Below are positions 17,590 through 44,742 of a DNA stretch of 64,000 bases, piece by piece (positions within the stretch are counted from its first letter, which is position 1; the number at the start of each line of letters is the position of its first letter). The translations under genes were made by a program, and so were the position numbers. A model generated the notes under the pieces. That model was not told the DNA's origin, searched no databases, and saw nothing but the letters and a program-made list of their open reading frames with translations. The stretch comes from Candidatus Paceibacter sp. GTDB lineage: Bacteria; Patescibacteriota; Patescibacteriia; Magasanikbacterales; UBA922. The stretch covers positions 1,855 through 65,854 of the forward strand of contig DYFM01000005.1 in NCBI GenBank assembly GCA_020725175.1, given 5' to 3'.

Positions 17590-17630
17590 GATTACAACGA
17601 ATTCGTTATAATCCGTTCAATTCGATCAAT
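17590..17630. repeat. Palindromic element cggattacaacgaa/ttcgttataatccg; member of the AACGGAT-core family
   Basis: 14-bp near-perfect inverted repeat centred on AACGAATTCGTT. Confidence 0.45.
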
Positions 17631-17643
17631 CCGTGGTCTATTA

Positions 17644-18096
17644 TTATCGTACTTCAATTGTATCAACCACAGCATCTAGTAATTCCTTCATCTTTCGATC
17701 ATTCATTTGATAAAAAAGTTTTACCACGAATGATCCGGAAGCACCGGTGAGTGTTTTGATATCTTTGGGGATATTTCGGTCGGCATAGTCTTGTGTCTGC
17801 CCATCTTCTACACCAAATGGTAAGTCTTGTGCGTCAGAAGTTGAAACAATTTCGATACGTGAATTATCTCCTGTTATCAAAAGTATGTCTGTTTCTGGTT
17901 CACGTTCCACAACATACCCATCAGGATATTGAAATGTCATTGCGTCTGATGTGTATGAATGTTTCAATTTGTATATCTCAGCCTGGGTTGGTTCTGGGGC
18001 AGATTCATTGGAACTATCATTTCTAAACACAAAAAATGTAATGCTCGCAAGAATAATAATTCCCGATACAACCGGCAAAAAGATTTTTTTGTTCAT
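17644..18096 (-). CDS. Hypothetical secreted or membrane-anchored protein
   Basis: N-terminal transmembrane/signal segment MNKKIFLPVVSGIIILASITFFVF. Confidence 0.45.
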   Translation of the reverse strand: MNKKIFLPVVSGIIILASITFFVFRNDSSNESAPEPTQAEIYKLKHSYTSDAMTFQYPDGYVVEREPETDILLITGDNSRIEIVSTSDAQDLPFGVEDGQTQDYADRNIPKDIKTLTGASGSFVVKLFYQMNDRKMKELLDAVVDTIEVR

Positions 18097-18249
18097 ATCA
18101 AAATATTTGTTGAGAAGTAATAGATAAAAAATGCAGTAACCACACTTCCGCGGTAATCACTCATCAATCAGGACTACTCAGTAAACAAAACCAACTTAAC
18201 TTACTCCAAAAACTTAGCTTACCCAGAGAACTCAGAAAACCCAGTCAAC

Positions 18250-19125
18250 TTAGACTCTCTCCACCCAATGCACATCAACACCAACATCAAGTTCCAAAAA
18301 TACTTTCTTGTTGGTTGCTTGTTCCAGTTCTTTTCTCGCCATTTGACCAATTTCCTTGATTTTACTTCCGCGAGCACCGATAATCATGCGCTTGTATCGC
18401 TCTTCGTTGGTCAAAATCCGAGCAGAAATGACAAAGAGATCTGGTTTTTCCTCAACACTGTCTACCTCAACAGAAATAGAGTAGGGTACTTCCTTATCAA
18501 AAATTGAGAAGGTTTTTTCTCGAATTATTTCAGAAATCCAAAAGTGATGATCTACGTTCGTTAGCTGATCCTCCGGGTAGAGTGGCTCACCTTCAGGAAG
18601 AAGTTCAATAACTTTATCACGCAGTGGCTGTACATGACTGGCTCGAAGCGCAGAAACCGGAAGAACAGCATCAAAATCGTTGCCCCAAAATTCATAATCG
18701 GCTTGAAACGCGCGTTCACTACGAGATAAATCACTTTTGTTAATGACGAGTATTTTAGGTTTTTCCACATGACGAATCATACCATATACTGCTCGTTCTT
18801 CTTGACCTATTTCTCTGGTAGGATCTACGACATATACAATGACATCAATATCTTGCAGTGCCTCGTGAACTTTATTTGTTAGTTTGGCGGTAAGCGGATT
18901 TTTTCTATCTTTAAATACCCCTGGGGTATCCACAAAAATCGCTTGCCCGTGAGGAGTGTTCATGACTCCGTGTATGATATGGCGGGTCATTTGCGCACGA
19001 AAACTAGTGGCAGCAATTTTAGTGCCAACGAGTGTGTTCAATAGGGTAGATTTGCCCACGTTTGACCGACCGACGAGGACGACAAAGCCGGACTTTGGTT
19101 GGGGGGTTGTTTGTTCTTTCTTCAT
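18250..19125 (-). CDS. era: GTPase Era
   Basis: G1 motif GRSNVGKST, G3 DTPG, G4 NKSD, and a C-terminal KH domain. Confidence 0.9.
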   Translation of the reverse strand: MKKEQTTPQPKSGFVVLVGRSNVGKSTLLNTLVGTKIAATSFRAQMTRHIIHGVMNTPHGQAIFVDTPGVFKDRKNPLTAKLTNKVHEALQDIDVIVYVVDPTREIGQEERAVYGMIRHVEKPKILVINKSDLSRSERAFQADYEFWGNDFDAVLPVSALRASHVQPLRDKVIELLPEGEPLYPEDQLTNVDHHFWISEIIREKTFSIFDKEVPYSISVEVDSVEEKPDLFVISARILTNEERYKRMIIGARGSKIKEIGQMARKELEQATNKKVFLELDVGVDVHWVERV

Positions 19126-19130
19126 AGGTT

Positions 19131-19302
19131 TTACGGATTACGGATAATACGGAGCTACGGATATTGCTTATCAAAAGTGTGTATGAAAATAGGGTGTGTA
19201 TTTAGTATAAAGTAACTAGCTTATTTTACATAATTTATTTTTGAACTTAATCTTACAATTTCCATCAAACATCCGTAGCTCCGTATTATCCGTAATCCGT
19301 AA
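19131..19302. mobile_element. 172-bp element bounded by 32-bp perfect inverted repeats (ttacggattacggataatacggagctacggat); MITE-like or a divergent-promoter operator
   Basis: The left arm at 19131-19162 is the exact reverse complement of the right arm at 19271-19302. An AT-rich ~108 bp core separates them. It lies between the era and rplI starts. Confidence 0.5.
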
Positions 19303-19377
19303 CGTCATATTCAAATGTGGATATTATTATACCTAACTATTGCCAAAAAATCAACCTCGGGGTATACTGAATGGTAT

Positions 19378-19821
19378 ATGAAAGTAATTCTTCTCAAAGA
19401 CGTCCCCGGAACCGGTAAACGGGGAGAAATAAAAGAAGTGGCTGATGGGTATGCTCACAATTTTTTGATTAAGAAAAAATTGGCTGAACCAGCATCAAAG
19501 CAGTCCGTTCGTTCTGTGCAAGAAAAAGAAGCTAAGAAGCTACGAGATAACCAAAAAAATCGCCAACGCACCGAACAAATGGTCTCACGTCTTGATGGTG
19601 CGGAAATTGAAGTATCAGAAAAAACCAATGATGAAGGAAGATTGTACGCAGCCATAACGGCGCAAAAGCTATCGAGCTATATTCAAAAAAAATGTGGGAT
19701 TACTGTAGACCCAAAGCAAATCATTATTGAAGATCCAATCAAAGAAATTGGTGATCACCGAGTGCGCATCGACCTCGGTTACGGACTCGAGGCCGAACTA
19801 TCCGTCATTGTCTCCGATTAA
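19378..19821 (+). CDS. rplI: 50S ribosomal protein L9
   Basis: MKVILLKDVPGTGKRGEIKEVADGYAHNFLIKKKLA is the L9 N-terminus. The track ORF starts 63 nt earlier, but this internal ATG is the plausible start. Confidence 0.85.
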   Translation: MKVILLKDVPGTGKRGEIKEVADGYAHNFLIKKKLAEPASKQSVRSVQEKEAKKLRDNQKNRQRTEQMVSRLDGAEIEVSEKTNDEGRLYAAITAQKLSSYIQKKCGITVDPKQIIIEDPIKEIGDHRVRIDLGYGLEAELSVIVSD

Positions 19822-19823
19822 CC

Positions 19824-19852
19824 CTTTCATCCACTGAAAGGGTTTTTTATTT
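19824..19852 (+). terminator. Rho-independent terminator after rplI
   Basis: ccctttcatccactgaaagggttttttatttt: stem plus T-run. Confidence 0.6.
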
Positions 19853-20047
19853 TATTGTGATGTGCTATACTGATGGGGTTTTAAAAGTGTATCAACTATT
19901 TTGATAAACAGTTATTTCAGATGGACGCTAATTTTCTGAATGTAACAGAATTGTTACAAAATTACGTTTTGATTCGTTTTATTTATCCGATCTGTATTCC
20001 ATCAAAAGTTAGTAACTAACTCTTACTTGTAATTTATTTGTACAACT

Positions 20048-21709: not shown

Positions 21710-21744
21710 CTCACGCCTTTGGCTGAATATATTCAAAAGACCAC

Positions 21745-21775
21745 CTAACGGTGGTCTTTTATAATAATTCTAGCA
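21745..21775. terminator. Bidirectional terminator between pyrG and cysS
   Basis: aaaagaccacctaacggtggtctttta: a perfect hairpin flanked by A and T runs. Confidence 0.6.
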
Positions 21776-21821
21776 TTTTCATGTCCGTACTCAGGGGTAA
21801 AACTATGAGTTACTTTTTTCA

Positions 21822-28781: not shown

Positions 28782-29378
28782 ATGTCCAAAGAAGTCATTT
28801 TCGATATAGAAACCATCGGTGATATAAAAGATCTGAGCACTATGAAAATCACAGTCGTTTCTATTTACGACTATGAAACCAACGCATACTATTCATTTGA
28901 CGAACATGAGTTACATGGTCTTTGGCCATACATGGAAAAAGCGGAACGAATTATTGGGTACAACAGTGAACACTTTGATTTGCCTATTCTCAATCGCTAT
29001 TACGCCGGTGATCTGACGAAGTTTCCGCACTTGGATTTATTGGTCGTCATTAAAGAAATGGCCGGTAAACGCTACAAACTGGATGATATAGCAAAAGCAA
29101 CACTTCAAATAAGTAAAAGTGCCGATGGATTACAAGCAATGAAATGGTATGAGGAGGGGAGAATTGATGAGATTAAAAAATACTGTGAACAAGATGTAAA
29201 AGTTACCAAAGAAGTGTATGAGTTTGGATTAAAAAATAAAATGCTTTATTATCCAACCCTCACCGGCGATCTTATGCCAATTGCCGTTAATTTTGATATG
29301 CCGGTTCAACCGGTGGGAGTATCTGGAGGAGAAGTGGGGAATGATGGAAAAAGTTTTAACTTGACTTTGCCCTTCTAA
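28782..29378 (+). CDS. DEDDy-type 3'-5' exonuclease domain protein
   Basis: Exo I FDIET, Exo II HFDLPIL, Exo III YCEQDVK. Confidence 0.55.
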   Translation: MSKEVIFDIETIGDIKDLSTMKITVVSIYDYETNAYYSFDEHELHGLWPYMEKAERIIGYNSEHFDLPILNRYYAGDLTKFPHLDLLVVIKEMAGKRYKLDDIAKATLQISKSADGLQAMKWYEEGRIDEIKKYCEQDVKVTKEVYEFGLKNKMLYYPTLTGDLMPIAVNFDMPVQPVGVSGGEVGNDGKSFNLTLPF

Positions 29379-29554
29379 GCATTGATTATACAGATTTTAG
29401 ACGGATTACGCAGAGATGTCTAAACATTGATTACACAGATTAAAAAAGATTGCACAGAGGTGTAATCTTTTTTGTCTGAATTTAGTTATAAGTAGGTTTA
29501 AGACCGATCAGTGTAATCATCCTGTAATCCCTCTAAAATCTGTATAATCAATGC
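29379..29554. mobile_element. 176-bp MITE-like element with 23-bp perfect terminal inverted repeats (gcattgattatacagattttaga), flanked by TAA on both sides
   Basis: The left TIR at 29379-29401 is the exact reverse complement of the right TIR at 29532-29554. Internal sub-repeats (gattacgcagag, gattacacagat, gattgcacagag) are present. It fills the convergent gap between two genes and abuts both stop codons. Confidence 0.55.
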
Positions 29555-30246
29555 TAAAAGATTTCAAAATGCACTTCCTTTGCATCCACTCCATTTTTTA
29601 GAAGAATCTCTCGAACATCTTTCACCATAGCAGCGCTGCCACAAAGGTAAAAACTATGGGAAACCAAATGGTGAAGAATATGTTCTGTTACACGACCGCG
29701 TAGTCCAGACCAGCCTCCATCCGGTTTTGGTTGAGAGAGAGTAATTTGATAGTCAAATAGAGGATGTTGTTGTTTTAAGACTTCTAATCTATCTGCCCAA
29801 AACACATCTTCTTCATTTCGAACTCCAAAAAGTAGTCGGATTTCTTTGCCGGTTTTTTTTACTTCCAGTTCTTCTCGTATCATTCCCATAATCGGAGCCA
29901 GTCCGGCTCCGGTAGCGACAAAATAGTAGGCCTGTACATCATTTGTGCAAACAAACCGCCCCCGTGGACCACGAAATTCAGCTGTTTCTCCTACAGTTAG
30001 ATTTTGAAAATAATTTGATGCTTTTCCATCCGGAAGACACTTTACACACAATTCCAAGTGCTCATCTTGTGAGGTGGACGCAAGTGAATATGACCGGATA
30101 ATAGGTTCATCACCGGGTACAAAAAATTGAATAAACTGCCCGGCTTCAAAAGTGAAATCAGTAGGCTTAGTGAAATGAAGTTCTAGGGTATTATTGGCAA
30201 TTTTTTCTTTTGAGATGAGCGTTGTGGTGTAGCGTTCGTTGGACAT
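29554..30246 (-). CDS. FAD/NAD(P)-binding oxidoreductase (ferredoxin-NADP reductase-like)
   Basis: RSYSLAS FAD-binding motif, a GTGLAP-like NAD motif (ATGAGLAP), and a ~230-aa length. Confidence 0.7.
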   Translation of the reverse strand: MSNERYTTTLISKEKIANNTLELHFTKPTDFTFEAGQFIQFFVPGDEPIIRSYSLASTSQDEHLELCVKCLPDGKASNYFQNLTVGETAEFRGPRGRFVCTNDVQAYYFVATGAGLAPIMGMIREELEVKKTGKEIRLLFGVRNEEDVFWADRLEVLKQQHPLFDYQITLSQPKPDGGWSGLRGRVTEHILHHLVSHSFYLCGSAAMVKDVREILLKNGVDAKEVHFEIF

Positions 30247-30295
30247 ACTGAGAGGAAATATTATTCTTTTAATTTTATGTGTGGGTGAATAGACC

Positions 30296-30352
30296 TCGGA
30301 TATAACAGATGAAACGGATCAGTTCTAATCCGTTTCATCTGTTATATCCGTG
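30296..30352. repeat. Perfect 23-bp-arm palindrome (cggatataacagatgaaacggat ... atccgtttcatctgttatatccg); AACGGAT-core family
   Basis: Inverted repeat with a 9-nt loop, upstream of the Rrf2 regulator promoter. Confidence 0.55.
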
Positions 30353-30380
30353 TTGCTATTATTTATATAAGTGTAATGAT

Positions 30381-30410
30381 TGACAATTCGCTAAATTTCC
30401 TATATCATAC
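30381..30410 (+). promoter_or_regulatory. Sigma-70-like promoter for the Rrf2-suf operon
   Basis: TTGACA, a 17-bp spacer, then TATCAT, about 30 bp upstream of the Rrf2 start. Confidence 0.45.
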
Positions 30411-30439
30411 TCCGCAAGTATGATTTTTTCAAGCTGTGT

Positions 30440-30829
30440 ATGATCAAAATCAGCAAACAAGTCGATTATGGTATTCAATTTTTGCAAGAATTAGCTAAAA
30501 AAGAAGCTAATTCACCGCTTAGTATAGCAGATTTTTCCAAAAAGTCCAGTATTTCTTTTCTTTTTCTACAAAAAATAGCCAAAAAACTGAAAGATGCCAA
30601 CATGGTTACTGCTACCAAAGGTGCCAATGGTGGATATATATTAAAACGACCACTGTCAACCATCAATATGAAAGAACTTATTGAAACCATTGATGGCTCA
30701 TTTGGAGTTGTTGATTGCCAAAAAAAAGGAAAGGCTTGCCCAAAAGAAAAGAAATGTGGAGTAAAGCCATTGTTTGAAGGAGTGAATGAACAAGTCTTGT
30801 CAGTGTTGTCTTCGACCTATCTAATGTAA
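30440..30829 (+). CDS. Rrf2-family transcriptional regulator (IscR/SufR-like) with a Cys cluster
   Basis: N-terminal winged helix (SKQVDYGIQFL) and C-terminal CxxxxxxCxxxxxC. It is the first gene of the suf operon. Confidence 0.75.
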   Translation: MIKISKQVDYGIQFLQELAKKEANSPLSIADFSKKSSISFLFLQKIAKKLKDANMVTATKGANGGYILKRPLSTINMKELIETIDGSFGVVDCQKKGKACPKEKKCGVKPLFEGVNEQVLSVLSSTYLM

Positions 30830-30897
30830 ATAATTGTTATTCGTCAGTTCAAATCCGCTTTATCTGTTTTATTCGCAGATCAATCAAGTTCAACGTT

Positions 30898-32307
30898 ATG
30901 CCTAAAAAAAAGTCACAACTTCATTTTGACGTAAACCGAACACTCTACGAACAAGCCAACGAAGATCGATCGCGATACAGAGCGACTCCGGGGCTTACAG
31001 AAGATGTGGTACGAGAAATTTCATCTCAAAAAAATGAGCCGAATTGGATGTTGGAAAAACGACTGAAGGCACTTGCGTTATTTCAAGAAAAACCGATACC
31101 CACGTGGGGACCAAGCCTAGCAAACCTCAATTTGGATGAGATTGTATATTTTGTTCGCCCTGATACCGAAGAAGCCAGAAAATGGGAAGATGTGCCGGAT
31201 GATATCAAAAAAACCTTTGAGCGTTTGGGAATTCCTGAAGCTGAGCGAACCGCTCTTGCTGGTGTCGGCGCACAATATGATTCTGATGTAGTCTATCATA
31301 GTATCAAAGAAGATCTTCAAAAAAAGGGAGTAATTTTTGAAAACATGGATGTGGCGGTAAAGGAATATCCTGAACTGGTACAAAAGTACTTTATGACACA
31401 GTGCGTACCAATTCATGATCATAAATTTGTTATGCTTCACGCAGCCGTGTGGTCAGGCGGGACATTTATTTATATACCAAAAGGTGTCAAAGTAGAACTT
31501 CCGCTCCAAGCATATTTTCGAATGAATGCTGAAAGTGGGGGGCAATTTGAGCATACACTCATTATTGCGGATGAAGACGCGGAGGTTTCTTACATTGAGG
31601 GCTGCTCTGCACCACGCTATACCACAAATTCACTTCATGCCGGTTGTGTAGAAATTTTTGTTCATAAAAATGCAACAGTGCGATATTACTCTATTGAAAA
31701 TTGGTCCAAAAATACCTACAACTTAAATACCAAGCGTGCCCTCGTCGATGCCGGTGGAAGAATTGAGTGGGTGAGTGGTAATATGGGTTCTGGAACTACT
31801 ATGCTGTATCCGGCATCAATTTTGCGTGGTGAAGGAGCTTCAGCAGATAATCTCGGCATTGCAGTAGCCGGTCCGGGACAGCATCAGGATATTGGAGCGA
31901 AAACGTTTCATGTGGCACCAAGAACCAAATCAGTTACTCGTTCTCGGTCAATTTCGTTTGGGGGAGGTATTGCCAGTTTTCGAGGAATAGTAAAAGTAAG
32001 TAGAAACGCGGTTGAAAGTGATTGTTCGGTCTCGTGTGATGCTTTACTCCTTGATGGAAAGTCCAGCGCCTACACATATCCCGGAATGGAAATAAATACC
32101 AATGATGTGACAGCAGCTCACGAAGCGAAGACGGGGAAAATTGACGAGGAAGTATTGTTTTATTTGATGAGTAGAGGACTGTCGCAAGAACAGGCGACAC
32201 AATTGGTCGTTGGGGGATTTGTCGAACCGATTGTGAAAGCACTACCGCTTGAATACGCACTCGAGCTGAATCGATTGGTGGAGATGGAGATTGAGGGGTC
32301 TGTCTAG
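30898..32307 (+). CDS. sufB: Fe-S cluster assembly protein SufB
   Basis: SufB/SufD beta-helix family and 469-aa length. Confidence 0.8.
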   Translation: MPKKKSQLHFDVNRTLYEQANEDRSRYRATPGLTEDVVREISSQKNEPNWMLEKRLKALALFQEKPIPTWGPSLANLNLDEIVYFVRPDTEEARKWEDVPDDIKKTFERLGIPEAERTALAGVGAQYDSDVVYHSIKEDLQKKGVIFENMDVAVKEYPELVQKYFMTQCVPIHDHKFVMLHAAVWSGGTFIYIPKGVKVELPLQAYFRMNAESGGQFEHTLIIADEDAEVSYIEGCSAPRYTTNSLHAGCVEIFVHKNATVRYYSIENWSKNTYNLNTKRALVDAGGRIEWVSGNMGSGTTMLYPASILRGEGASADNLGIAVAGPGQHQDIGAKTFHVAPRTKSVTRSRSISFGGGIASFRGIVKVSRNAVESDCSVSCDALLLDGKSSAYTYPGMEINTNDVTAAHEAKTGKIDEEVLFYLMSRGLSQEQATQLVVGGFVEPIVKALPLEYALELNRLVEMEIEGSV

Positions 32308-32391
32308 CTAAACATTGTCATCCTGAATGTAGCCGAAGCGATGTGAAGGATTTGTCAAAAATAAAAAGAAAATAATTGATAGAGCTTCGGA

Positions 32392-32455
32392 TTTAACGGA
32401 TTGGACGAATTAGAACGGATCAGTTAATATCCGTTTCATCCGTTAAATCCGAAGG
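32392..32455. repeat. Palindromic element cttcggatttaacggat ... atccgttaaatccgaag; AACGGAT-core family
   Basis: Long imperfect inverted repeat between sufB and sufS. Confidence 0.5.
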
Positions 32456-32524
32456 TCTATTCAACCCTTAAAAATGTAGAAGCCCGCCGTGATTCTCTCG
32501 AATGGCGGCGGGCAGTGCTCACCC

Positions 32525-32611
32525 TCACCTGTTTTTCCCCCAAAACAGGAAGAGGGCGAGCAGTACTTGGAATCCACCGAGGATTCCAAGTACGATAAAG
32601 ACGGCTTCCAT
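32525..32611 (-). CDS. Candidate small hydrophobic peptide (28 aa: MEAVFIVLGILGGFQVLLALFLFWGKNR)
   Basis: Perfect Shine-Dalgarno sequence AGGAGGTAAAAATG, a single predicted transmembrane helix, and a GC-rich hairpin (gcccgccg ... cggcgggc) with a T-run immediately downstream. It sits in a GC-rich islet antisense to the spurious N-terminal extension of the sufS ORF. Coordinates are +/-2 nt. Confidence 0.3.
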   Translation of the reverse strand: MEAVFIVLGILGGFQVLLALFLFWGKNR

Positions 32612-32665: not shown

Positions 32666-33895
32666 ATGCTTTTAAATCTAAAAGAATGTAAGATTTGCTT
32701 TCCAATATTCCAAAAACACCCCAATCTAGTCTATCTAGATTCAGCTTCCAGTACCCAAACACCACAAACTGTTCTTGATGCAGTGAACGATTACTATATA
32801 AACTACCGAGCAAATATTCATCGAGGATTATATGATTTGAGTGGTACTGCAACACAGAAATATGAGGAAGCCAGAAAAACAGTAGGAAAGTTTATCAGCG
32901 CAAGTTCGAAAGAAATTGTCTTCACATCCGGAACAACTCATGGTCTAAATCTACTCGCCTCAGGAGTACAAAATACTCTTCAGCCGGGTGATAATATTGT
33001 GTTGACTGAAATGGAACATCATGCGAATTTAATTCCGTGGCAAAAAATTGCAAAGAAGAAGGGGATGGAGCTACGATTTATACCAATGAACAGGGAACAG
33101 AGGACAGGGAACAGTTACGAATTGGGTGTTTCTGACATTGAAAATTTGATTGATGAAAAGACGAAAATCGTATCTTTTACTCTGGTATCAAATACGCTCG
33201 GAACAATTAATCCGGCGGAAGAAATTATTGCTCGAGCAAAAAAAATTGGTGCAATCACAATTGTCGACGCAGCACAGGCAATGGCGCACATGCCGATTGA
33301 TGTAAAGATATTAGACTGCGATTTTATGGTATTTTCCGGACATAAAATGTATGGTCCAACCGGAATTGGTGTTTTATACGGAAAAAAAGAAAGGTTGGAA
33401 GCACTTGAACCATTTTTTTATGGCGGAGACATGGTCCGTTCTGTATCGTATGAAGATGCAACTTGGGCAGATGTACCGGAAAAATTTGAAGGGGGTACGC
33501 CAAATATTGCGGGTGCGATTGGACTTGGTGCTGCGGTTGAATTTATTCAGTCTACTGGGTTTGATAAAATACAGAATCACGAAACACAATTAACTAATAA
33601 ACTAATAAACCAATTAAATAGTATACCTGATGCTCGGATAATTGGATTGAATTCAGAGGAAAAAAGAATTGGAGTAGTCTCATTTTTACTAAAAGACATT
33701 CATCCTCACGATGTGGCGGAAATATTGAATCGCGACCAGGTATGTGTCCGTACTGGGCATCACTGCACTATGCCACTTATGAAGAAACTTGGTTTACCAG
33801 GAACAGTACGTGCTTCAGTTGGGATTTACAATACGGAAGATGATATTGATAAACTTTTTGCGTCTTTAGCGAGAGTTATGGCTGTTTTTAAATAG
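32666..33895 (+). CDS. sufS: Cysteine desulfurase SufS (class V aminotransferase)
   Basis: YLDSASSTQ start region, PLP-binding SGHK, and the active-site Cys motif RTGHHC. I placed the start at the internal ATG (MLLNLKE). The exact coordinate is +/-1 nt because my manual count disagrees by one with the ORF track in this region. Confidence 0.8.
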   Translation: MLLNLKECKICFPIFQKHPNLVYLDSASSTQTPQTVLDAVNDYYINYRANIHRGLYDLSGTATQKYEEARKTVGKFISASSKEIVFTSGTTHGLNLLASGVQNTLQPGDNIVLTEMEHHANLIPWQKIAKKKGMELRFIPMNREQRTGNSYELGVSDIENLIDEKTKIVSFTLVSNTLGTINPAEEIIARAKKIGAITIVDAAQAMAHMPIDVKILDCDFMVFSGHKMYGPTGIGVLYGKKERLEALEPFFYGGDMVRSVSYEDATWADVPEKFEGGTPNIAGAIGLGAAVEFIQSTGFDKIQNHETQLTNKLINQLNSIPDARIIGLNSEEKRIGVVSFLLKDIHPHDVAEILNRDQVCVRTGHHCTMPLMKKLGLPGTVRASVGIYNTEDDIDKLFASLARVMAVFK

Positions 33896-33897
33896 AC

Positions 33898-33968
33898 CGC
33901 GGATTTAACGGATGGAACGAATTAAAACGGATCCGTTCCAATCGGTCTAATCTGTTAAATCTGCGGTC
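33898..33968. repeat. Palindromic element gaccgcggatttaacggat ... atctgttaaatctgcggtc; AACGGAT-core family
   Basis: Long inverted repeat between sufS and sufU. Confidence 0.5.
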
Positions 33969-33983
33969 TATTAAGCATAATCT

Positions 33984-34376
33984 ATGAAGCAAACCGACCC
34001 AATCTACAAAGAAATGATCCTATATCTATATAAAAATCCACTAAACAAAAAACAGTTGGCCGATTTTGATTGTTCACATAAAGAATACAATCCCAGCTGT
34101 GGAGACGAAATAGAAATCATGATCAAATTTGATGAGTCCGGTAAAATTATCGATATTGGACACCAAGGTGAAGGCTGTGCTGTTTCACAAGCAGCGGTTT
34201 CTTTGTTGACAGAAGAAGTAAAGGGTAAAAGCAAAGAAGAGGTGATGAGTTTGACTGAAGAGGAAATGATTAACATGCTGGAAATTCCTATTTCTCACAC
34301 GAGATCAAAATGTGCATTACTGGGTTTGAAAACTATTCTATTTTGTTTTGATAGACCTTCGAATAAGACGAATTAA
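33984..34376 (+). CDS. sufU: SufU/IscU-like zinc-dependent sulfur-transfer scaffold
   Basis: NPSCGDE, GEGCAVSQA and KCA give three conserved Cys in the NifU-N-like fold. Confidence 0.7.
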   Translation: MKQTDPIYKEMILYLYKNPLNKKQLADFDCSHKEYNPSCGDEIEIMIKFDESGKIIDIGHQGEGCAVSQAAVSLLTEEVKGKSKEEVMSLTEEEMINMLEIPISHTRSKCALLGLKTILFCFDRPSNKTN

Positions 34377-34430
34377 ACGGATATTAACAGATCCCTTCTA
34401 ATCAGTTGCACTCGTTAAATCCGAAGATCT
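34365..34430. repeat. Imperfect palindromic element (gacgaattaaacggat ... cgttaaatccgaagatc); AACGGAT-core family
   Basis: Located between sufU and sufC. It shares the ttaaacggat and atccg words with the other copies. Confidence 0.4.
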
Positions 34431-34443
34431 ATCAACATTTTAT

Positions 34444-35172
34444 ATGCTACAAACAAAAAATCTCCATGTATCAGTAGAAGAAAAAGAAATTCTTCAAAAC
34501 ATCAATCTCTCCATTAAGCCCGGTGAACTTCATGTAATTCTCGGCCCAAACGGATCTGGAAAATCTACACTTGCCAATAGTCTTATGGGACATCCATCAT
34601 ATAACGTCACAGATGGTAAAATAGAGATTGATGGTATTGATATCACACATGAACAAGTGAATAAGCGAGCCAAGGCTGGACTATTTCTTTCGTTACAAAA
34701 CACACCGGAAATTCAAGGTGTTACTGTTTCAAATTTTTTACGAACAGTGATCAGTAGCAAAACAGGTGAGAAGCTTCATCCGGTAAAATTTTATAAGACC
34801 CTACAAGAAAAAATGAAGGAGCTTCAAATAAATCCTGAGTTTGCAAAACGGTACATTAATGTCGGATTTTCCGGTGGAGAAAAGAAACGGCTAGAGATTC
34901 TTCAACTGTTGCTCCTTAACCCAAAATATGCTATTCTCGATGAAACAGATTCTGGGCTTGATGTTGATGCACAAAAAATAGTAGCTGAAGGAATAACAAC
35001 ATTTCATGGAGCAGGAAACGCGGTATTACTTATCACTCATCATCATAAACTGTTAGATTATCTGAATCCTGATATGGTACACATTATGAAAGAAGGCAAA
35101 ATCATGAAAACCGGCACCGCTGAACTAGCTAAAACAATCTTACAACAAGGTTTTTCCAATCTAACCATATGA
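34444..35172 (+). CDS. sufC: Fe-S cluster assembly ATPase SufC
   Basis: Walker A GPNGSGKST, ABC signature FSGGEKKR, Walker B ILDETDSGLD. Confidence 0.9.
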   Translation: MLQTKNLHVSVEEKEILQNINLSIKPGELHVILGPNGSGKSTLANSLMGHPSYNVTDGKIEIDGIDITHEQVNKRAKAGLFLSLQNTPEIQGVTVSNFLRTVISSKTGEKLHPVKFYKTLQEKMKELQINPEFAKRYINVGFSGGEKKRLEILQLLLLNPKYAILDETDSGLDVDAQKIVAEGITTFHGAGNAVLLITHHHKLLDYLNPDMVHIMKEGKIMKTGTAELAKTILQQGFSNLTI

Positions 35173-35456
35173 TCACAAAAGAACGAATTATTGAGGAACT
35201 TGAAACCATTATCGATCCGGAAATTGGTCTTGATTTGTGGACACTTGGACTCATTTACAACATCAATATCGAAAGTGAAGAAAAAGTCATTATTACTCTC
35301 ACATACACAACCCCCCTGTGCCCATATGGTCCAGCTATCAATACTGAGGTCACTGATGCCATGCGGTCACTCGGCTTTAAGGCAGTAGAAATTGATCTGA
35401 CGTTTGATCCGCCTTGGAAACCACCGGAGAATCTGCGAGAGATGATGGGGGTGTAA
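35169..35456 (+). CDS. DUF59/MIP18-family Fe-S assembly factor (SufT-like)
   Basis: DPEIG.....LGLIY and TLTYTTPLCP are the DUF59 signature. It overlaps the sufC stop by 4 nt. Confidence 0.65.
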   Translation: MITKERIIEELETIIDPEIGLDLWTLGLIYNINIESEEKVIITLTYTTPLCPYGPAINTEVTDAMRSLGFKAVEIDLTFDPPWKPPENLREMMGV

Positions 35457-36275: not shown

Positions 36276-36305
36276 ACAAATCTAACACGACCGCTTATTC
36301 GGTCG
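36276..36305 (+). terminator. Rho-independent terminator after the ferredoxin gene
   Basis: acacgaccgcttattcggtcgtgtttttt. Confidence 0.65.
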
Positions 36306-36371
36306 TGTTTTTTGTTTAATGGGAAGTGGGCGGGCGGGTACTCGGCAACGTGCTTTTCCCCGCCCCCCTGC

Positions 36372-36535: not shown

Positions 36536-39178
36536 TTATTTCTTATTTATCTCAATTTTATTTTTCTTAATTCCAACGGTCACCGTATCGCCTTCAGCAA
36601 TAGTTCCTTCCACAATTTGGAGTGCCAGCGCATCAAGGAGCTCATGCTGAATAACCCGTTTCAATGGCCGTGCACCTAGGTTTGGATCATAGCCTTTTTT
36701 AGAAAGCCATTCCTTTGCCTTGTCCGTAACTTCAAGTACAATACGTTTTTCATGCATACGGCGATAGACTTGCTCCAGTTGGGTATCGACAATTTGACGA
36801 ATTTGTTTTTCTGTCAGCGGATGAAATACAATAATTTCATCAATTCGATTCAAAAATTCCGGTTTAAAATTTTCTCGAAGAGCTTCCATTACCCGAGAAC
36901 TGATTTTTTCTTCTCGTTTTGCTTTGGTGATAGTATCACTTTTTTCTGCAAATCCAAATTCACCCTTTCGTCCGAGTTGCATGATCATGTCACTCGCAAT
37001 ATTACTGGTCATGATAATAACCGTATTTTTGAAATTTACTTTTCTTCCTTTTGCGTCAGTCAAATGTCCATCTTCGAGAATCTGCAACATGATATTGAAT
37101 ACATCCGGATGGGCTTTTTCCACTTCATCAAACAAAACAACTGAATATGGTTTGCGGCGAATAACTTCAGTAAGCTGTCCACCCTCCTCATAGCCAACAT
37201 ATCCCGGTGGAGAACCAATAATTTTACTGGCCGTATGTTTTTCCATGTATTCAGACATATCCACCCGAACCAAAGCATTTTCATCGTTGAACATGAATTC
37301 AGCCAGAGTTTTAGCAAGTTCAGTTTTCCCTACACCAGTCGGGCCAAGAAAGATAAATGAACCAATCGGTCGTTTTTCCTCAGAAATACCGGCTCGTGAA
37401 CGGCGAATAGCATTTGCTACCGCTTTGATTGCTTCTTCTTGCCCAATAACTCGTTTGGCAAGTACACATTCTAAATGGGCAAGCTTACGTGTCTCATCCT
37501 CAAGCATTTTTTGAACCGGAATTCCAGTCCAACGCGCAACTACTCGCGCAATATCTTCTTCTGTCACTTCTTCCTTGAGAATCGCACGCTTACCTTGGAG
37601 TTCAGACAGTTTCTTTTCGTCCTGAGCAATTTGACGTTCCAATTCCGGAATGCGAGCATAGCGAATTTCAGCAACTTTTTGCAGATCTCCTTTTCGTTCT
37701 TCTATGTCAGCCTGCTGTTTCAGCTTGTCAATTTCTTTTTTTGCTTCCCGAATCTTGGTAATAATTTCTTTCTCGTGTTTCCAATGTACTTCTAGTTCGT
37801 TGCTTTGTTCTTTCAGATCTGCCAGTTCTTTGGAAAGCTTAGATTTCCGTTCCTCCGCCTCCGGATCATTTTCTTTTTTGAGCGCTCTTAGTTCAATCTC
37901 GGTTTTCATGATTCTTCGTTTCAGATGATCTAGGTCATCCGGCATAGATTCTATCTCCATTCGAATCGCAGAGGTTGCTTCATCAATAAGATCGATTGCT
38001 TTGTCAGGAAGAAATCGGTCGGTAATATAACGACTCGCCAATTTTACCGCAGAAACCACTGCTGAGTCAGTAATACGTACCCCGTGGTGTACTTCATATT
38101 TTTCTTTAATTCCACGAAGTATTGCGACAGCATCATCTTCACTTGGTTCTTTCACCATGACTGGCTGAAAACGGCGTTCAAAAGCCGCGTCTTTTTCAAT
38201 ATACTTCTGATATTCTTTGATGGTTGTCGCGCCAATAGTACGAAGTTCTCCACGGGCAAGTGCCGGCTTCAACATGTTTGACGCGTCTACCGCACCTTCA
38301 GAACTTCCAGCACCAATAATAGTATGAAGTTCGTCAATAAAAAGAATGATTTTTCCTTTGGAATTGGTTACTTCTTTCAATACAGCTTTTAGTCGTTCTT
38401 CAAACTCACCACGAAATTTTGTTCCGGCCACCAGTGCACCTATATCCAATCCTACCAATTCTTTTCCCTGTAAACTTTCCGGCACATCACCTTTGACAAT
38501 TCGTTGTGCCAACCCTTCTACAATGGCTGTTTTTCCAACACCTGGTTCACCAATAAGAACTGGATTATTCTTAGTTCTTCGGGTCAACACTTGCATAACC
38601 CGCCGAATTTCATCGTCTCGTCCGATCACTGGATCAAGTTTTTCCTTGCGAGCCATTTCAGTAAAATTTTGACCATACTTTTCAAGCGATTGATAGGTTG
38701 ATTCCGGAGTAGGGGAACTGACTTTTTGTGAACCACGAACTCCTGCCAATACTTTTAACACCATATCATAATCTATTCCTTCAGAAAGGAGCATGTCGCT
38801 AATGGGGTTTTTATTACTGAGAAAGGCCAGGAGAAGATGTTCAACACTTATATAGTCATCACCCATTTTTTTCGATTCTTGTTGAGCGTTTTTTAAAATA
38901 TACATGGCCCCTTGTCCCATAAGAACTTGCCCCATAGCGCCCGGACTCATACCAAACTGTCGAGGGAGCACATTCATCAGTGATTCAACGTCACCTTTAA
39001 GCTGATCAAGGTTTACGTTTAATTTTTGAAAAACTGCAATAACCACACCATCCTGTTGCTCCAATAGAGCGGCAAACAAGTGTGGCGGCTCTATCTGTGG
39101 CTGTCCATGATCGTTGGCGATTTCTTGAGCCCGCTGAATTGCTTCTTGTGATTTTTGGGTAAAATTTTGTGGATTCAT
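36536..39178 (-). CDS. clpB: ATP-dependent chaperone ClpB
   Basis: Clp N-domain, two AAA+ modules (GEPGVGKT and GPTGVGKT) and a long middle coiled coil; 880 aa. Confidence 0.9.
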
Positions 39179-39237
39179 AATGTGTATTTAAAAGACAAAA
39201 TTGACTATTTTCTCAATCAAACTGTCCGAAGAGGATT

Positions 39238-39262
39238 ATCACTCTAATATAGAGAGTGCTAA
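39238..39262. promoter_or_regulatory. CIRCE-like inverted repeat (HrcA operator) upstream of clpB
   Basis: On the clpB strand it reads TTAGCACTC-TCTATATTA-GAGTGAT, compared with the consensus TTAGCACTC-N9-GAGTGCTAA. One half is perfect and the other matches 7 of 9. It is 60-85 bp upstream of the clpB start. Confidence 0.5.
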
Positions 39263-39348
39263 TACTATACCATACTGGAAATTGTTGTCAATATATGTTA
39301 AAGTTACGTATACTATAACAAATTTTTCAGTTACTGTGGAAAAAAATT

Positions 39349-39909: not shown

Positions 39910-39926
39910 GTTTATTTGTACCGACT

Positions 39927-40754: not shown

Positions 40755-40764
40755 TAAAACATAT

Positions 40765-41526
40765 ATGCTCACAAATACCATGAAACAACACGTGACAAAG
40801 CTGCAACAGAAGAAGTATCGATACGAATTTCAAGAATTTATTATTGAAGGAAAAAAAGCAATAGATGAAGCATTCCAAAACACAGCAAAATTGACTACAA
40901 TTTTTATTCAAGAAGAAAAATCAGAATCTGAAGAATTTGATCAGGTTATTCAACGTGCAAAAAAAGAGCATATACCAGTCTACTTTGTTAGTAAAAAAGA
41001 TATTAAAGATATTAAAACCACATCAACGTATCCTGGCATATCGGCAATCGTTACTTTTCAGCCGCAAACATTGGCAACTATCACACAAAACACACCGATA
41101 ATTGTACTTGACAGTATCAATGACCCCGGGAACCTGGGTACTATTATTCGCACTGCGGATTGGTTTGGATTTACTACTATTCTTTTGTCAGAAAATTGTG
41201 TCGACCCGTACAATGAAAAAGTGGTACGATCGACCATGGGCTCTATATTTCACATGAACCTTATTCAGAGTACAAATATTGTTCAGGATGTCGCCCTGTT
41301 AAAACAAAAGAAATACAAAGCCTATGGCTTCACTATGAAGGGTAAAAACATCAAAGGCTTGAAAAAAAGTAAGAAATCTGTTTATATATTTGGCAGTGAA
41401 TCGCACGGAATTCAGGAGGACCTACTTCCTCTCTGTAATGGATTATATTCAATTCCTGGTAAAGGAAAAGCTGAATCATTGAACGTGGCTGTATCGGCGG
41501 CGGTTGTAATGTATAAAGTAGTGTAG
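40765..41526 (+). CDS. TrmH/SpoU-family RNA 2'-O-methyltransferase
   Basis: SpoU motifs LDSINDPGNLGTIIRTADWFG and GSESHG, plus an N-terminal substrate-binding domain. Confidence 0.75.
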   Translation: MLTNTMKQHVTKLQQKKYRYEFQEFIIEGKKAIDEAFQNTAKLTTIFIQEEKSESEEFDQVIQRAKKEHIPVYFVSKKDIKDIKTTSTYPGISAIVTFQPQTLATITQNTPIIVLDSINDPGNLGTIIRTADWFGFTTILLSENCVDPYNEKVVRSTMGSIFHMNLIQSTNIVQDVALLKQKKYKAYGFTMKGKNIKGLKKSKKSVYIFGSESHGIQEDLLPLCNGLYSIPGKGKAESLNVAVSAAVVMYKVV

Positions 41527-41559
41527 TTATTCATTATTTATTCAGAATCGTAATGTTAT

Positions 41560-43038
41560 ATGATAAAGACCAGAATCGCCCCAAGTCCAACCGGTTTTCT
41601 ACACGTCGGCAATCTTCGCACGGCCTTATTTTGCTACTTATACGCCAAAAAGAACCAAGGTCAATTTTTTATTAGAGTTGAAGACACTGATCGAGAGCGT
41701 TTGGTAGAAGGAGCAATTGAAAATATGCTTCAGTCATTGCATTGGGTAGGTATTATTCCGGATGAAGGGGTTGATTATGACGGACAAAAAGTTATTCAAA
41801 AAGGGGATAAAGGACCTTATGTCCAATCGGAGAGATTGGATATATATCAAACTTATATCAACCAGCTTATTCAGCAAAAAGACGCTTACCATTGTTTTTG
41901 TAGTCGAGAGCGTTTGGAAGAATTACGTAAAGTCCAGGAGTTGAATAAGCAGCCGGTTGGTTACGATGGTCATTGTCGATCTCTTGCTTCGGAATTTGTG
42001 GAGGAGCAGTTAAATAATAAAACACCATTTGTTATTCGCATGAAAATGCCCAAAGAAGGTACAACCACTTTTACAGATTTGGTTCGTGGAGATGTTACTT
42101 TTGAAAACAAACTTGTCGATGATCAGGTACTAATGAAAACAGACGGATTTCCCACATATCATTTTGCGGTGGTGGTTGATGATCATCTTATGGGAACCAG
42201 CCATGTTATGCGTGGAGAAGAGTGGATTTCTTCGACACCTAAACACATCACTCTTTATAAAATGTTTGGCTGGGAGGCTCCACAGTTTGCTCACTTATCA
42301 CTTTTGGTAAATGAAGAAAAGAAAAAACTGAGCAAGCGACACGGTGATGTATTTGTGAATGATTTTAAGGAAAAAGGCTACCTACCGGAAGCTTTGTTGA
42401 ATTTTATCGCTTTTCTGGGCTGGAATCCAGGTACTGATCAGGAAATTTTCTCTCTCGATGAACTTATCGCCAATTTTGATTTTTCAAAAGTTTCCAAAGC
42501 ACCGGCAGTTTTCAACCGAGAAAAATTAAACTGGTTCAACAAGCAATACTTGACCGTGATGAGTGACGATACATTGGTGGATAGGGCCTTACCATTTTTT
42601 ATAAATTCCGGACTATTATCTTCTCCTAAACAATACCCAAAACAATGGCTTTCTCGAGTAGTTTCACTGGAAAAAACTCGTTCAGCTACATTGGTGGAAT
42701 TGGTGGAACATGTTTCGTTCATCTTTGCCGATTCACTTGTCTACGATTCGGAGTTGCTAGTATGGAAAAAAAGTACTGCTGAAGATGCTAAAGAAAAACT
42801 AGTACAACTATCAAATCTTTTGACTACTTTTTCTGATCAAGAATGGAACAAGGGAGATCTTGAAACTAAAGTTCTCACCTGGATTAAAGAAAATGAATTT
42901 GGAGTTGGAGATGTTTTATGGCCCACTCGAGTTGCCCTATCCGGACAAAAAAATTCCCCCGGACCCTTTGAGATTATGGATGTATTGGGGAAGGAAAAAA
43001 CTCTATCTCGCCTGAACCAAGCCATTTCCTTGCTATAA
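41560..43038 (+). CDS. gltX: Glutamate--tRNA ligase
   Basis: RIAPSPTGFLHVGN (HIGH) and KLSKR (KMSKS) motifs; 492 aa. Confidence 0.9.
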   Translation: MIKTRIAPSPTGFLHVGNLRTALFCYLYAKKNQGQFFIRVEDTDRERLVEGAIENMLQSLHWVGIIPDEGVDYDGQKVIQKGDKGPYVQSERLDIYQTYINQLIQQKDAYHCFCSRERLEELRKVQELNKQPVGYDGHCRSLASEFVEEQLNNKTPFVIRMKMPKEGTTTFTDLVRGDVTFENKLVDDQVLMKTDGFPTYHFAVVVDDHLMGTSHVMRGEEWISSTPKHITLYKMFGWEAPQFAHLSLLVNEEKKKLSKRHGDVFVNDFKEKGYLPEALLNFIAFLGWNPGTDQEIFSLDELIANFDFSKVSKAPAVFNREKLNWFNKQYLTVMSDDTLVDRALPFFINSGLLSSPKQYPKQWLSRVVSLEKTRSATLVELVEHVSFIFADSLVYDSELLVWKKSTAEDAKEKLVQLSNLLTTFSDQEWNKGDLETKVLTWIKENEFGVGDVLWPTRVALSGQKNSPGPFEIMDVLGKEKTLSRLNQAISLL

Positions 43039-43043
43039 TATGT

Positions 43044-43295
43044 ATGTTGGTTAGAAGAAAACATGACCTTCTTTCAAAAGAAAAACGTGAAGTAGTCATT
43101 GAAAAAATTATTAGCTATTTTCATACCGAAAGAAACGAAACTATCGGTATTATAGCAGCCGGAGAATTTTTAGACATGCTACTACAAATGATTGCGGAAG
43201 ATATTTACAACCTCGCCATTGAGGATGCGAAAGTAACAGTAAAACAATCCTTTGAAAATCTGGAAGTAAACTTGGGTCTTTTGCTAAATAAGTAA
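43044..43295 (+). CDS. Hypothetical small protein (DUF2164-like)
   Basis: 83 aa, starting 6 nt after the gltX stop. Confidence 0.35.
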   Translation: MLVRRKHDLLSKEKREVVIEKIISYFHTERNETIGIIAAGEFLDMLLQMIAEDIYNLAIEDAKVTVKQSFENLEVNLGLLLNK

Positions 43296-43371
43296 GCATC
43301 ACTCTCCCTATTTTATCAACACCAAACAACCTTTCTCAAACCCTCGACATATGCTATACTAAACATAGCAT

Positions 43372-44616
43372 ATGAAACGTTTCTTCGTAATACTTCTCAT
43401 TATTAGCATCGGCGCCGCGAGTCAGCCGTTTTTTGCGTATACCACGACACCCGCTACCGGAGGTACACAAGAGGAAATTAACTCGCTTAATAAAGAAATA
43501 GAAGCTAAAAAAGCCAAGATAAAGCAAATTGAAGAGACTATTTCTGCTTACAAAAAGAAGATTGAAGAAAAACGCACAGAAGCAGTTTCTATTTCCAACC
43601 AACTTGCCATTCTTGATAATCGAATAGCTCAGGTAGAACTTGATATTGAAGCAACTACCGCTACTCTTGAGGCAATTGAACTTGAGATCAAGCAACTACA
43701 GCTTTCTATCAACGAAAAACAACAGATTGTAGATAAACAAAAAGACATGCTCGGCGAGTTAGTTCGACTCCTTCACTACCAACAATCAAAGAAAACCATT
43801 GAAGTGTTGGCAGCATACGACAGTTTTTCAGAATTTTATACCACAGTTCAACACCTAGAAAATCTGGAGCGCAATCTAGGAAAACAAGCAAAAATGATTC
43901 GCCTTGCCAAAGAAGAATTGGAAACAAAACGAACCGAACAAGAAAAACGTCGTGAGTCATACAAAGAACTAACAGCTAAGCTTGAAAAGCAAAAAGAAGA
44001 CCTTGATCACCGAATTGACGGAAAAGAAGTGCTTCTAGCTGCCGCCCAATCATCCGAGTTGGAATATAAGACTGTTGTTAATAGTCTTAAAAAGCAATAC
44101 CAGGCAGTTGAAGGGGAAATTTCCACTATTGAGCGGCAAGTACGACAAAAACTTGAATCAGAAAAGAAAATCACCAAAGAACCGGAATCCCCAACCGGTG
44201 AGGTCATTCTTTCCTGGCCGGTAAATAGCCGGTATGTTACCGCCTATTTTTACGATCCATCTTACCCATATCGAAACGTCTTTGAACATAATGCCATCGA
44301 TATCGCAGTTGGGCAGGGGACAACGGTACGTGCGGCAGCCAGTGGCTATGTAGCTAGAGCCAAACGTTGTACTACCGCATCATGCTATGCCTATGTTATG
44401 ATTGTGCATTCTGGTGGCATTTCTACTGTTTATGGTCATTTGAGTCGAATTGATGTAGCTGAAGATCAGTTTGTAACTCGCGGTGATGTGATCGGTCTTT
44501 CCGGTGCCAGACCGGGTACTATTGGTGCCGGCCCTTTCACTACCGGTCCACATCTTCATTTTGAAACTCGTAAAAATGGTATTCCGGTGAATCCGTTGAA
44601 TTATTTAGAAAAATAG
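43372..44616 (+). CDS. M23-family peptidoglycan metalloendopeptidase with an N-terminal coiled coil (EnvC-like)
   Basis: Signal peptide, long coiled coil, and a C-terminal M23 domain (HLHFETRKNG, H.H). Confidence 0.8.
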   Translation: MKRFFVILLIISIGAASQPFFAYTTTPATGGTQEEINSLNKEIEAKKAKIKQIEETISAYKKKIEEKRTEAVSISNQLAILDNRIAQVELDIEATTATLEAIELEIKQLQLSINEKQQIVDKQKDMLGELVRLLHYQQSKKTIEVLAAYDSFSEFYTTVQHLENLERNLGKQAKMIRLAKEELETKRTEQEKRRESYKELTAKLEKQKEDLDHRIDGKEVLLAAAQSSELEYKTVVNSLKKQYQAVEGEISTIERQVRQKLESEKKITKEPESPTGEVILSWPVNSRYVTAYFYDPSYPYRNVFEHNAIDIAVGQGTTVRAAASGYVARAKRCTTASCYAYVMIVHSGGISTVYGHLSRIDVAEDQFVTRGDVIGLSGARPGTIGAGPFTTGPHLHFETRKNGIPVNPLNYLEK

Positions 44617-44664
44617 TAGCTCTCACAAACAACAGACTATTATTAGTCATGTTGAACAAGTAAA

Positions 44665-44742
44665 CAGACCGCGAATGAAACGGATTAAACAAAATGCAAC
44701 GAATTCGTTTTTATCTATCTAATCTGTTTCATTCGCGGTCTA
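44665..44742. repeat. Palindromic element agaccgcgaatgaaacggat ... atctgtttcattcgcggtct; AACGGAT-core family
   Basis: A 20-bp near-perfect inverted repeat around a ~38-bp core that contains AACGAATTCGTT. Confidence 0.5.

Follow-up and report, generated by a model that had tools for sequence, protein, structure and literature searches.

The suf operon of Candidatus Paceibacter sp. (Magasanikbacterales), as it lies in the 64-kb stretch of contig DYFM01000005.1 analysed here (hereafter the window), is punctuated by palindromic elements that are probably copies, now in decay, of a palindromic mobile repeat. This repeat would be non-autonomous and of either the repetitive extragenic palindromic (REP)/REPIN type or the miniature inverted-repeat transposable element (MITE) type. 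Six imperfect palindromes of 73–88 nt and one half copy are present in the window. Five of these seven copies fall within the 4.2 kb of the Rrf2-sufBSUC stretch, a clustering to which our own rough binomial estimate, with the choice of window allowed for, assigns a p of about 0.004 or less. The initial annotation of this DNA had listed a small mobile palindrome with local expansion among its explanations, and this proposal gains support from element-free junctions in related genomes, from the mutual closeness of the suf copies and from the dispersal of the family over several phyla.

The repeat family in the window and in other phyla

Each arm of the element opens with a terminal (A)TAGACC, which is followed by three to four RCGGAT boxes at a spacing of 9–10 nt; the opposite arm mirrors this plan and ends in GGTCTA(T), so that two arms facing each other give the element TAG...CTA 'double feet'. 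The consensus of the window copies reads (A)ATAGACC-N-CGGAT, continues with nnAACGRAT units that recur every 9–10 nt and closes with the mirrored arm end ATCCG-N-GGTCTAT(T). The extents of the copies were set by nhmmer profile search and are given below, with E values that come, unless another model is named, from an independent model built without window sequence.

17571–17644: full copy with a decayed left end, between greA and a hypothetical gene (17644–18096, minus strand); E 1.5e-9
30285–30362: full copy of a short form, with three boxes per arm and arms 96% complementary; E 1.7e-8; RNA fold −39.4 kcal/mol, z −11.4
30844–30888: half copy (right arm only), between Rrf2 and sufB; E 2e-5 with the window-derived nhmmer model
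32376–32463: full copy, in the sufB/sufS gap; E 1.7e-11; RNA fold −41.6 kcal/mol
33888–33975: full copy, at the sufS/sufU junction; E 1.1e-15
34348–34435: the most decayed of the full copies, at the sufU/sufC junction; E 4e-5; RNA fold −20.6 kcal/mol
44660–44747: full copy, between the genes for an M23 peptidase and a LexA-like S24 protein; E 8.7e-9; fold −37.3 kcal/mol

All six palindromes named in the initial annotation are present, with true extents slightly wider than it gave, and the half copy is one that it had overlooked. An inverted-repeat finder places the six full copies among the eight longest palindromes of the window. The AACGGAT core that they were said to share occurs 21 times in the window vs 10.0 ± 3.1 times after shuffling, a count that none of 100 shuffles reached, and the six copies can be aligned with a mean column identity of 72%.

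The independent hidden Markov model (HMM) was made from 14 gapless 83-nt copies taken from Acidobacteriota and Bacteroidota only. It recovers all six full copies of the window, with E values from 1e-15 to 4e-5, and nothing else at significance; the half copy is not significant with this model (E 0.5), and the best score in 20 shuffled windows was 9.3 bits. We regard the recovery of window copies by a profile from other phyla as the strongest evidence that they belong to one family.

The breadth of this family was examined by a pattern scan (AATAGACC-N1-2-CRRAT-NN-AACRGAT) of one genome per species. The pattern matched five window arms and none in shuffles, and it found matches in at least 111 stretches, where about 17 chance matches are expected from its information content. 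The window-derived profile confirmed 85 of the 111 listed stretches, with similarity extending well past the 23-nt pattern, and about a dozen of those listed (SAR86, Aenigmarchaeota, C. difficile and others) look like chance. Among the matches listed, the carriers belong to Bacteroidota, Chloroflexota, Acidobacteriota, Ignavibacteriota and other phyla. They include the isolates Hymenobacter bucti, H. polaris, Arcicella aurantiaca DSM 22214 and Flavobacterium sp. D4. Large contigs are represented by a Chloroflexia chromosome of 11.3 Mb, a Blastocatellia contig of 3.3 Mb and an Ignavibacteriota contig of 1.6 Mb, and metagenome-assembled genomes (MAGs) by several from Caldilineaceae and single ones from Brevinematales, KSB1 and Calditrichota. 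When metagenome contigs were scanned as well, another 13 stretches came to light, whose G+C content is 0.34–0.67. Two MAG labels are probably wrong: the MAG of an 'uncultured Clostridia' has an accB-accC junction near-identical to that of a Blastocatellia MAG, element included (L050 6072–6154 and L097 4569–4651), and contigs assigned to 'Janthinobacterium lividum' (L014, L087, L088) have genes and Hymenobacter-type arms in common with Hymenobacter. The Hymenobacter arm is 75 nt long, often solo, and consists of TAGACC, three boxes, GCGCAGATACGCC, an extra GC hairpin and TGACTA.

Judged by these matches, at least five phyla harbour the family in almost unchanged form. Neither of the conditions under which the initial annotation would have given up the family, no elements elsewhere in the genome or no conservation of the core in an alignment, holds: the window copies occupy three separate places, an orthologous site in a sister species is occupied, and the 85 confirmed stretches come from other phyla. 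One metagenome contig (L123 5676–6053) carries at least six arms of two sub-types, with ACGAAT and ACGGAT boxes, in a dense cluster within 380 nt that is like the REP clusters of the literature.

Insertion into the suf operon and neighbouring features

The genes that surround the copies were assigned with Pfam and are as follows.

17058–17555, minus strand: greA
29554–30246, minus strand: FNR-like reductase
30440–30829: Rrf2
30898–32307: sufB
32666 (ATG) to 33895 (stop): sufS
33984–34376: sufU
34444–35172: sufC
35169–35456: sufT
downstream of sufT: two ferredoxins
36536–39178, minus strand: clpB
ending at 44616: M23 peptidase
45015–45593: LexA-like S24 protein

Exact protein matches to the region came only from metagenome assemblies and one NCBI contig of 79.9 kb. 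All named homologues of PyrG (72–77% identity) and SufS (55–68%) belong to Candidatus Magasanikbacteria or Patescibacteria, so that the window comes from a bacterium of the candidate phyla radiation (CPR). Three other Magasanikbacteria (L116–L118), whose SufS is 65–66% identical to that of the window, have a syntenic suf operon. The order of genes in these relatives is FNR-like, Rrf2, an extra cysteine desulfurase, sufB, sufS, sufU, sufC, sufT, the ferredoxins and clpB onward, with suf genes that overlap or abut (gaps of 4–13 nt), and a profile search across 57 kb of their sequence found no element at E up to 1. The suf junctions of the window measure 68–358 nt, and the sufB/sufS gap is 358 nt vs 10–13 nt in the relatives. 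Since the operon of these three relatives is closely packed and free of copies, the suf elements are lineage-specific insertions into the gene junctions of a formerly compact operon.

Insertion has reached the ends of two of the genes. The stop codon of sufS is the outer TAG (33893–33895) of the 33888–33975 copy, and the C-terminus of SufS is of normal length in comparison with the relatives. The sufU frame enters the 34348–34435 copy for 24 nt, which adds DRPSNKTN before a stop at 34374–34376, and SufU therefore ends in ...FDRPSNKTN, about eight residues past the ends of its relatives. Upstream of the operon, the 30285–30362 copy occupies the divergent space that separates the FNR-like gene from the Rrf2 promoter. 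Outside the operon, the GGTCTA end of the 17571–17644 copy is 3 nt from the TAA stop of the hypothetical gene.

The age of the insertions appears to differ. A sister species (L122; PyrG 92% identical) also has the greA-junction copy at the orthologous position, where its AAATAGACCGCGAAT end is intact; because the site is occupied in both, the copy predates the split of the two lineages. The two orthologues are 63% identical, no closer than paralogues, and their spacers are non-complementary; once inserted, copies drift quickly. The suf copies are mutually closest, with an identity of 72–80% vs 59–68% to most other copies, a likeness that fits a later, local spread.

The initial annotation had named the adjacent Rrf2-family regulator as a candidate for binding the palindromes, which would then be its operators at several places along the suf operon. 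Proximity alone speaks for this: one copy lies 78 nt upstream of the Rrf2 start codon, with four more downstream in the operon. The element also stands beside unrelated genes, in other phyla as well as at the greA and M23 peptidase genes of the window, and the relatives retain Rrf2 and suf without it. Moreover, a distinct palindrome, kept in relatives, is found on the promoter:

30404–30424: non-family palindrome ATCATACT-N5-AGTATGAT, upstream of Rrf2, conserved in L117 and L118

This palindrome and the −10 of the best promoter-like site (TTGACA-17-TATCAT, 30380–30408) overlap, and it is the better candidate for the Rrf2 operator. We consider it very improbable that the family palindromes serve this function.

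Several other features of the locus deserve description. Between Rrf2 and sufB, the relatives have a second class-V aminotransferase (cysteine desulfurase-like) gene (L117 6988–8214 and L118 7395–8579), and the corresponding interval of the window (30830–30897) comprises 68 nt only, which contain the half element 30844–30888. This arrangement suggests that the extra aminotransferase gene of the relatives may have been lost in the window by a repeat-associated deletion. The sufB/sufS gap contains an antisense mini-gene (32525–32611, minus strand) with AGGAGG 7 nt before its ATG and 28 hydrophobic residues (MEAVFIVLGILGGFQVLLALFLFWGKNR), followed on the minus strand by a GC hairpin with a T-run (32482–32513). 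The mini-gene is, by eye, G+C-richer than its surroundings and is absent from the relatives with their gap of 10–13 nt; its features resemble those of a cassette for a type-I-toxin-like or small membrane peptide. The same gap holds a solo arm (32316–32358) of a second repeat family (TGTCATCCTGAATGTAGCCGAAGCGATGTGAAGGATTTGTCA), for which we found no match in the literature.

Two further inverted-repeat elements had been taken by the initial annotation, on the basis of their arms, as relatives of the family.

19131–19302: separate inverted-repeat element with 35-nt arms of TACGGAT words, 97% complementary
29378–29555: separate inverted-repeat element with 32-nt arms, 97% complementary, and a 114-nt interior

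Words of the CGGAT type are shared by both, yet the independent model gives an E of about 1 for the first, and the second has no significant score with either the window-derived or the independent model, so that this kinship is not upheld. The era and rplI genes diverge from a promoter region of 102 nt, on either side of which lie the arms of the 19131–19302 element; the arms stop 5 nt short of the era start codon and 12 nt short of the rplI open reading frame (ORF). The element may be invertible, or it may be a regulatory segment. At the equivalent era/rplI place of the sister species (L122 3066–3375) there is also an inverted repeat, with arms of different sequence formed by sequence of the TGTCATCCTGAATGTAGCCGAAGCGATGTGAAGGATTTGTCA type (~3100–3290). 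As L122 has other arms at the same place, an inverted repeat is kept there while its sequence changes. The arms of the 29378–29555 element begin right at the stops of both convergent genes (exonuclease TAA, FNR-like TAG). Its interior, judged by eye as an A-tract, a hairpin and a T-tract, looks like a bidirectional terminator, the matching gap in L117 is 54 nt long and the architecture matches that of Hymenobacter arm pairs.

Elsewhere in the window, an inverted repeat of ATCATAAATC words (8010–8082; 27–28-nt arms, 86–89% complementary) lies upstream of an ORF at 8089–8769. Rfam detects a group I intron at 10722–10999 on the plus strand (RF00028, 76 bits, full-length model), downstream of tRNA-Gln (10309–10380), and ARAGORN called no host gene at the position of this intron. 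A DUF3800-II RNA (RF02961, 54.5 bits) is found at 2288–2361 on the minus strand, opposite to and overlapping the 3′ end of a DUF3800 gene (1724–2305).

Base pairing, stop codons and arm orientation

Conservation within the family is concentrated in short sequence blocks. A position logo of 203 arm ends showed that TAGACC is more than 93% conserved, with a per-position conservation of 93–99% for TAG; the base before it is A in 85% and G in 4%, the share of A being partly inflated by the AATAG search pattern, and rare copies read GTAGACC (L094). The RCGGAT boxes begin 7, 16, 25 and about 35 nt past the T of TAG, and the spacers between the boxes are weakly constrained.

The initial annotation had also proposed that the elements are hairpins for mRNA processing or stability. 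On this explanation, the host would keep RNA hairpins in the suf transcript as barriers to 3′-exonucleases or as RNase III sites that tune the levels of SufB, SufS, SufU and SufC, a role that has been proposed for some REPs inside operons. The part of the proposal that stands is the folding: when folded as had been suggested, the sense strands of the window copies form very stable structures (−20.6 to −42.5 kcal/mol; z from −3.7 to −11.4). Five of the seven copies are in one transcription unit with one strong promoter-like site (30380–30408), and the only terminator-like site of this unit is at 36284–36309, from which it follows that the elements should be transcribed; they have no T-tracts, so that transcription should also read through them. 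Such roles have been hypothesised in print for REPs (PMC3733652).

The part that did not stand is the maintenance of pairing. In the 14 gapless copies, 85.0% of cells are paired vs 83.1% when partners are shuffled among sequences, and spacer columns are unpaired in 36–57% of copies. Compensatory change is no higher than in shuffles, with 10 pairs changed on both sides vs 9.4 (252 of 500 shuffles reach 10). Among 18 elements for which the transcribed strand could be inferred, there is no strand bias in G-U-compatible mismatches (46 sense vs 51 antisense), and hence no G-U vs A-C asymmetry, and transversion mismatches make up 15% of arm positions. No Rfam family matches the elements, whether the gathering threshold is applied or E values of up to 5 are allowed. 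Further points against host-kept hairpins are the drift of the sister-species orthologue to 63% identity with non-complementary spacers, the same operon free of elements in three related genomes and the already badly decayed copy between sufU and sufC. We therefore view this explanation as unlikely. The palindromy is better attributed to both arms obeying one sequence consensus than to any maintenance of pairing, and the conserved features point to recognition of repeated boxes at the DNA level and not to a selected RNA hairpin.

The position of TAG relative to genes is also distinctive. In the fetched loci, the outer TAG closes a same-strand open frame of at least 100 codons in 58 of 167 arms (35%). 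Only 4.6% of the remaining TAGs do so (odds ratio 11, p 8e-34), and 2.9% of the remaining AATAGs; an upstream stop lies within the element in six arms only. Solo arms have TAG toward the 3′ end of the co-oriented gene in 50 cases and away from it in 25. Elements usually occupy the entire gap, and downstream genes retain their own Shine–Dalgarno sequence just past the far end. The contexts are co-directional (34), convergent (15) and divergent (8), and the arrangements found are singletons, tags-outside dimers, tags-inside dimers and clusters. The arms of Hymenobacter are placed between the stop codon and the terminator of the gene itself, singly or flanking convergent pairs.

These patterns may alternatively indicate that the arm is a 3′-end module for a conserved host factor involved in termination, mRNA decay or chromosome organisation, in which TAG is the stop, the phased ACGGAU/ACGGAT boxes are bound and mobility is secondary. 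The 35% of arms with TAG as a stop codon, the 2:1 orientation to gene 3′ ends, the position of the Hymenobacter arms and a box sequence and spacing that are near-identical across phyla are consistent with such a module. The coincidence with stops is, however, expected from selection alone in tiny junctions, because an in-frame insertion of TAG would survive there when other frames read into the element, and the use of the TAG tag as the stop codon of the upstream gene has already been reported for GTAG-tagged REPs (PMC3733652). Some copies, moreover, occupy promoter gaps between divergent genes or have their tags on the inside; at orthologous sites the copies decay fast, close relatives have none, and no co-occurring protein was found in the fetched loci. 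An arm that primarily serves gene 3′ ends thus seems distinctly improbable.

Known repeats, candidate mobilisers and significance

Under the preferred reading, that of a non-autonomous mobile repeat, the phased boxes would be repeated binding sites for a mobilising protein. Candidates for this protein are a REP-associated Y1/HUH transposase, with folded single strands as its substrate, and a TA-targeting DDE transposase of the IS630 type. The terminal TAG would let in-frame insertions at the extreme 3′ end of a gene survive, leaving copies exactly at stop codons, and local spread would account for the suf cluster. Should the long hairpins in the polycistronic RNA affect suf expression at all, this would be a by-product.

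The family is similar to GTAG-tagged REPs and REPINs in being a short extragenic palindromic repeat with a conserved terminal xTAG tag, in its singleton, dimer and cluster forms, in its location in co-directional and convergent gaps and operons and in the use of TAG as a stop. Published REPs are found singly, as dimers in head-head or tail-tail order and in clusters, where neighbouring genes are co-directional or convergent (PMC3733652). The differences are that the tag is mostly ATAG and not GTAG, that an arm consists of three to four direct RCGGAT boxes and not of a self-complementary stem-loop of 20–40 bp, that the unit is 75–100 nt long vs 20–40 for a REP, and that the sequence is nearly constant from one phylum to another, REPs being as a rule confined to a species or genus. 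No REPtron, in which a single-copy gene for a REP-associated tyrosine transposase (RAYT; PF01797-type Y1) is flanked by the repeats that it moves, was found for the family in the fetched loci, with about 0.9 Mb of flanks. The element behaves like a REP dimer with TAG feet, yet it lacks the stem-loop unit and mostly has A, not G, before TAG. Its outer words, (A)TAG-ACC-RCGGAT...ATCCGY-GGT-CTA, resemble those of the E. coli REP, GTAG-GCC-GGAT...ATCC-GGC-CTAC, a comparison that is a lead and not a test. The most plausible relatives are the REPs of TnpA-Y1 subclasses 2.4 and 2.6: 'double foot' long REPs (GTRG...CYAC) belong to subclass 2.4, which is scattered over phyla, and the Bacteroidetes subclass 2.6 has 'atypical secondary structures' (Quentin et al., PMC6006769). 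Searches of the literature by sequence string and keyword found no description of the family, sample accessions did not turn up in papers either, and the family does not occur in the text or readable supplements of two REP catalogues (PMC3733652 and PMC6006769).

MITEs of the IS630/Tc1-mariner type, such as the Correia/NEMIS elements of Neisseria, offer a second comparison. They resemble the family as non-coding repeats of 80–300 nt with long terminal inverted repeats and a high copy number, and in junction insertions that sometimes alter gene ends. Correia ends read TATAG(C/T)GGATTAAC and form RNase III-sensitive hairpins in transcripts. As with TA-targeting IS630 MITEs, every family copy is bracketed by TA (TA-GACC...GGTC-TA), although a duplicated TA would be indistinguishable from the repeat's own TA. 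The palindrome reaches further out in several lineages (GGAATAGACC...GGTCTATTCC), which counts against simple TA duplication, and no direct repeats longer than TA were seen flanking the copies. Unlike a MITE with an autonomous insertion sequence (IS), the family has no partner with these ends among the fetched loci, and subterminal arrays of 9–10-nt phased boxes are not a known feature of IS630.

Rickettsia palindromic elements (RPEs) are a third example of a palindromic repeat that joins reading frames in a small genome, as the family does with the eight residues added to SufU and the stop of SufS. RPEs typically insert in-frame inside genes; in contrast, the insertions of the family are at junctions and there is no sequence relation. 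RPEs are CGTC-tagged (PMC3733652). Other systems, namely integron attC, Xer/dif, CsrA sponges and Tn7/Mu-type ends, were considered and set aside, as their end sequences or contexts do not seem to fit.

Candidates for a source of mobility were sought in several ways. A regular-expression and jackhmmer search of 2780 ORFs for a link to RAYTs yielded one Y1 transposase (L085), whose homologues are all RAYTs of Acidobacteria and which is bracketed by a different, unrelated repeat. RAYTs co-vary with their own REPs, and by our estimate about two of 150 elements would be expected beside a RAYT even if one exists. As regards an autonomous IS, the inverted end pairs that lie 0.9–2.9 kb apart in the fetched loci enclose housekeeping genes, and an apparent match to a Tn3 transposase was a chance match within coding sequence. 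For carriage by phages, a viral scan yielded three chance matches; for carriage by plasmids, blastn gave 0 and 1 matches, the one being beside cas genes.

A number of observations weigh against a mobile repeat. No mobilising gene was found, the transposase of L085 (PF01797, E 5e-6) being the sole Y1/HUH enzyme in the flanks; all-against-all clustering detected no recurrent protein family beside the elements; the 112 ORFs next to solo arms proved in a Pfam scan to be ordinary genes, with no relevant transposase among them; and there was no transposase among the approximately 40 largest ORFs scanned in the window. An empty site was sought in L122, where the sole shared junction is already occupied and the other gap is too diverged. 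Single arms consist of direct RCGGAT boxes with no internal complement, and only the two-arm element (73–100 nt) is palindromic. The paired arms of Hymenobacter bracket locus-specific sequence with terminators, which is not explained by a simple cut-and-paste MITE unless arms insert singly or interiors turn over. Finally, the near-identity across phyla could reflect a conserved host partner and not mobility.

A broader proposal, which we put forward tentatively and with more doubt than conviction, is that these repeats form an uncatalogued REP-like superfamily of phased RCGGAT arrays ending in TAG. Such a superfamily would have spread horizontally over at least five phyla, including a CPR genome of about 1 Mb in which no transposase is visible, would be moved by a new subclass of RAYT or TIRYT or owe its spread to a host function, and would have TAG as an adaptation to stop codons.

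Small palindromic repeats are usually lineage-specific. Ends and boxes that are near-identical across phyla suggest that a tiny non-coding element has repeatedly crossed between phyla or else that its partner protein is very conserved. For annotation, the family explains long gaps in compact operons, stops and short C-terminal extensions that derive from repeats and possibly false calls of 'regulatory hairpins'. The presence of these copies in a member of the CPR shows that even very small, transposase-poor genomes are open to colonisation. An essential operon has been remodelled in the process, as suf genes that overlap, and are presumably translationally coupled, in related genomes are now separated by 80-nt hairpins.

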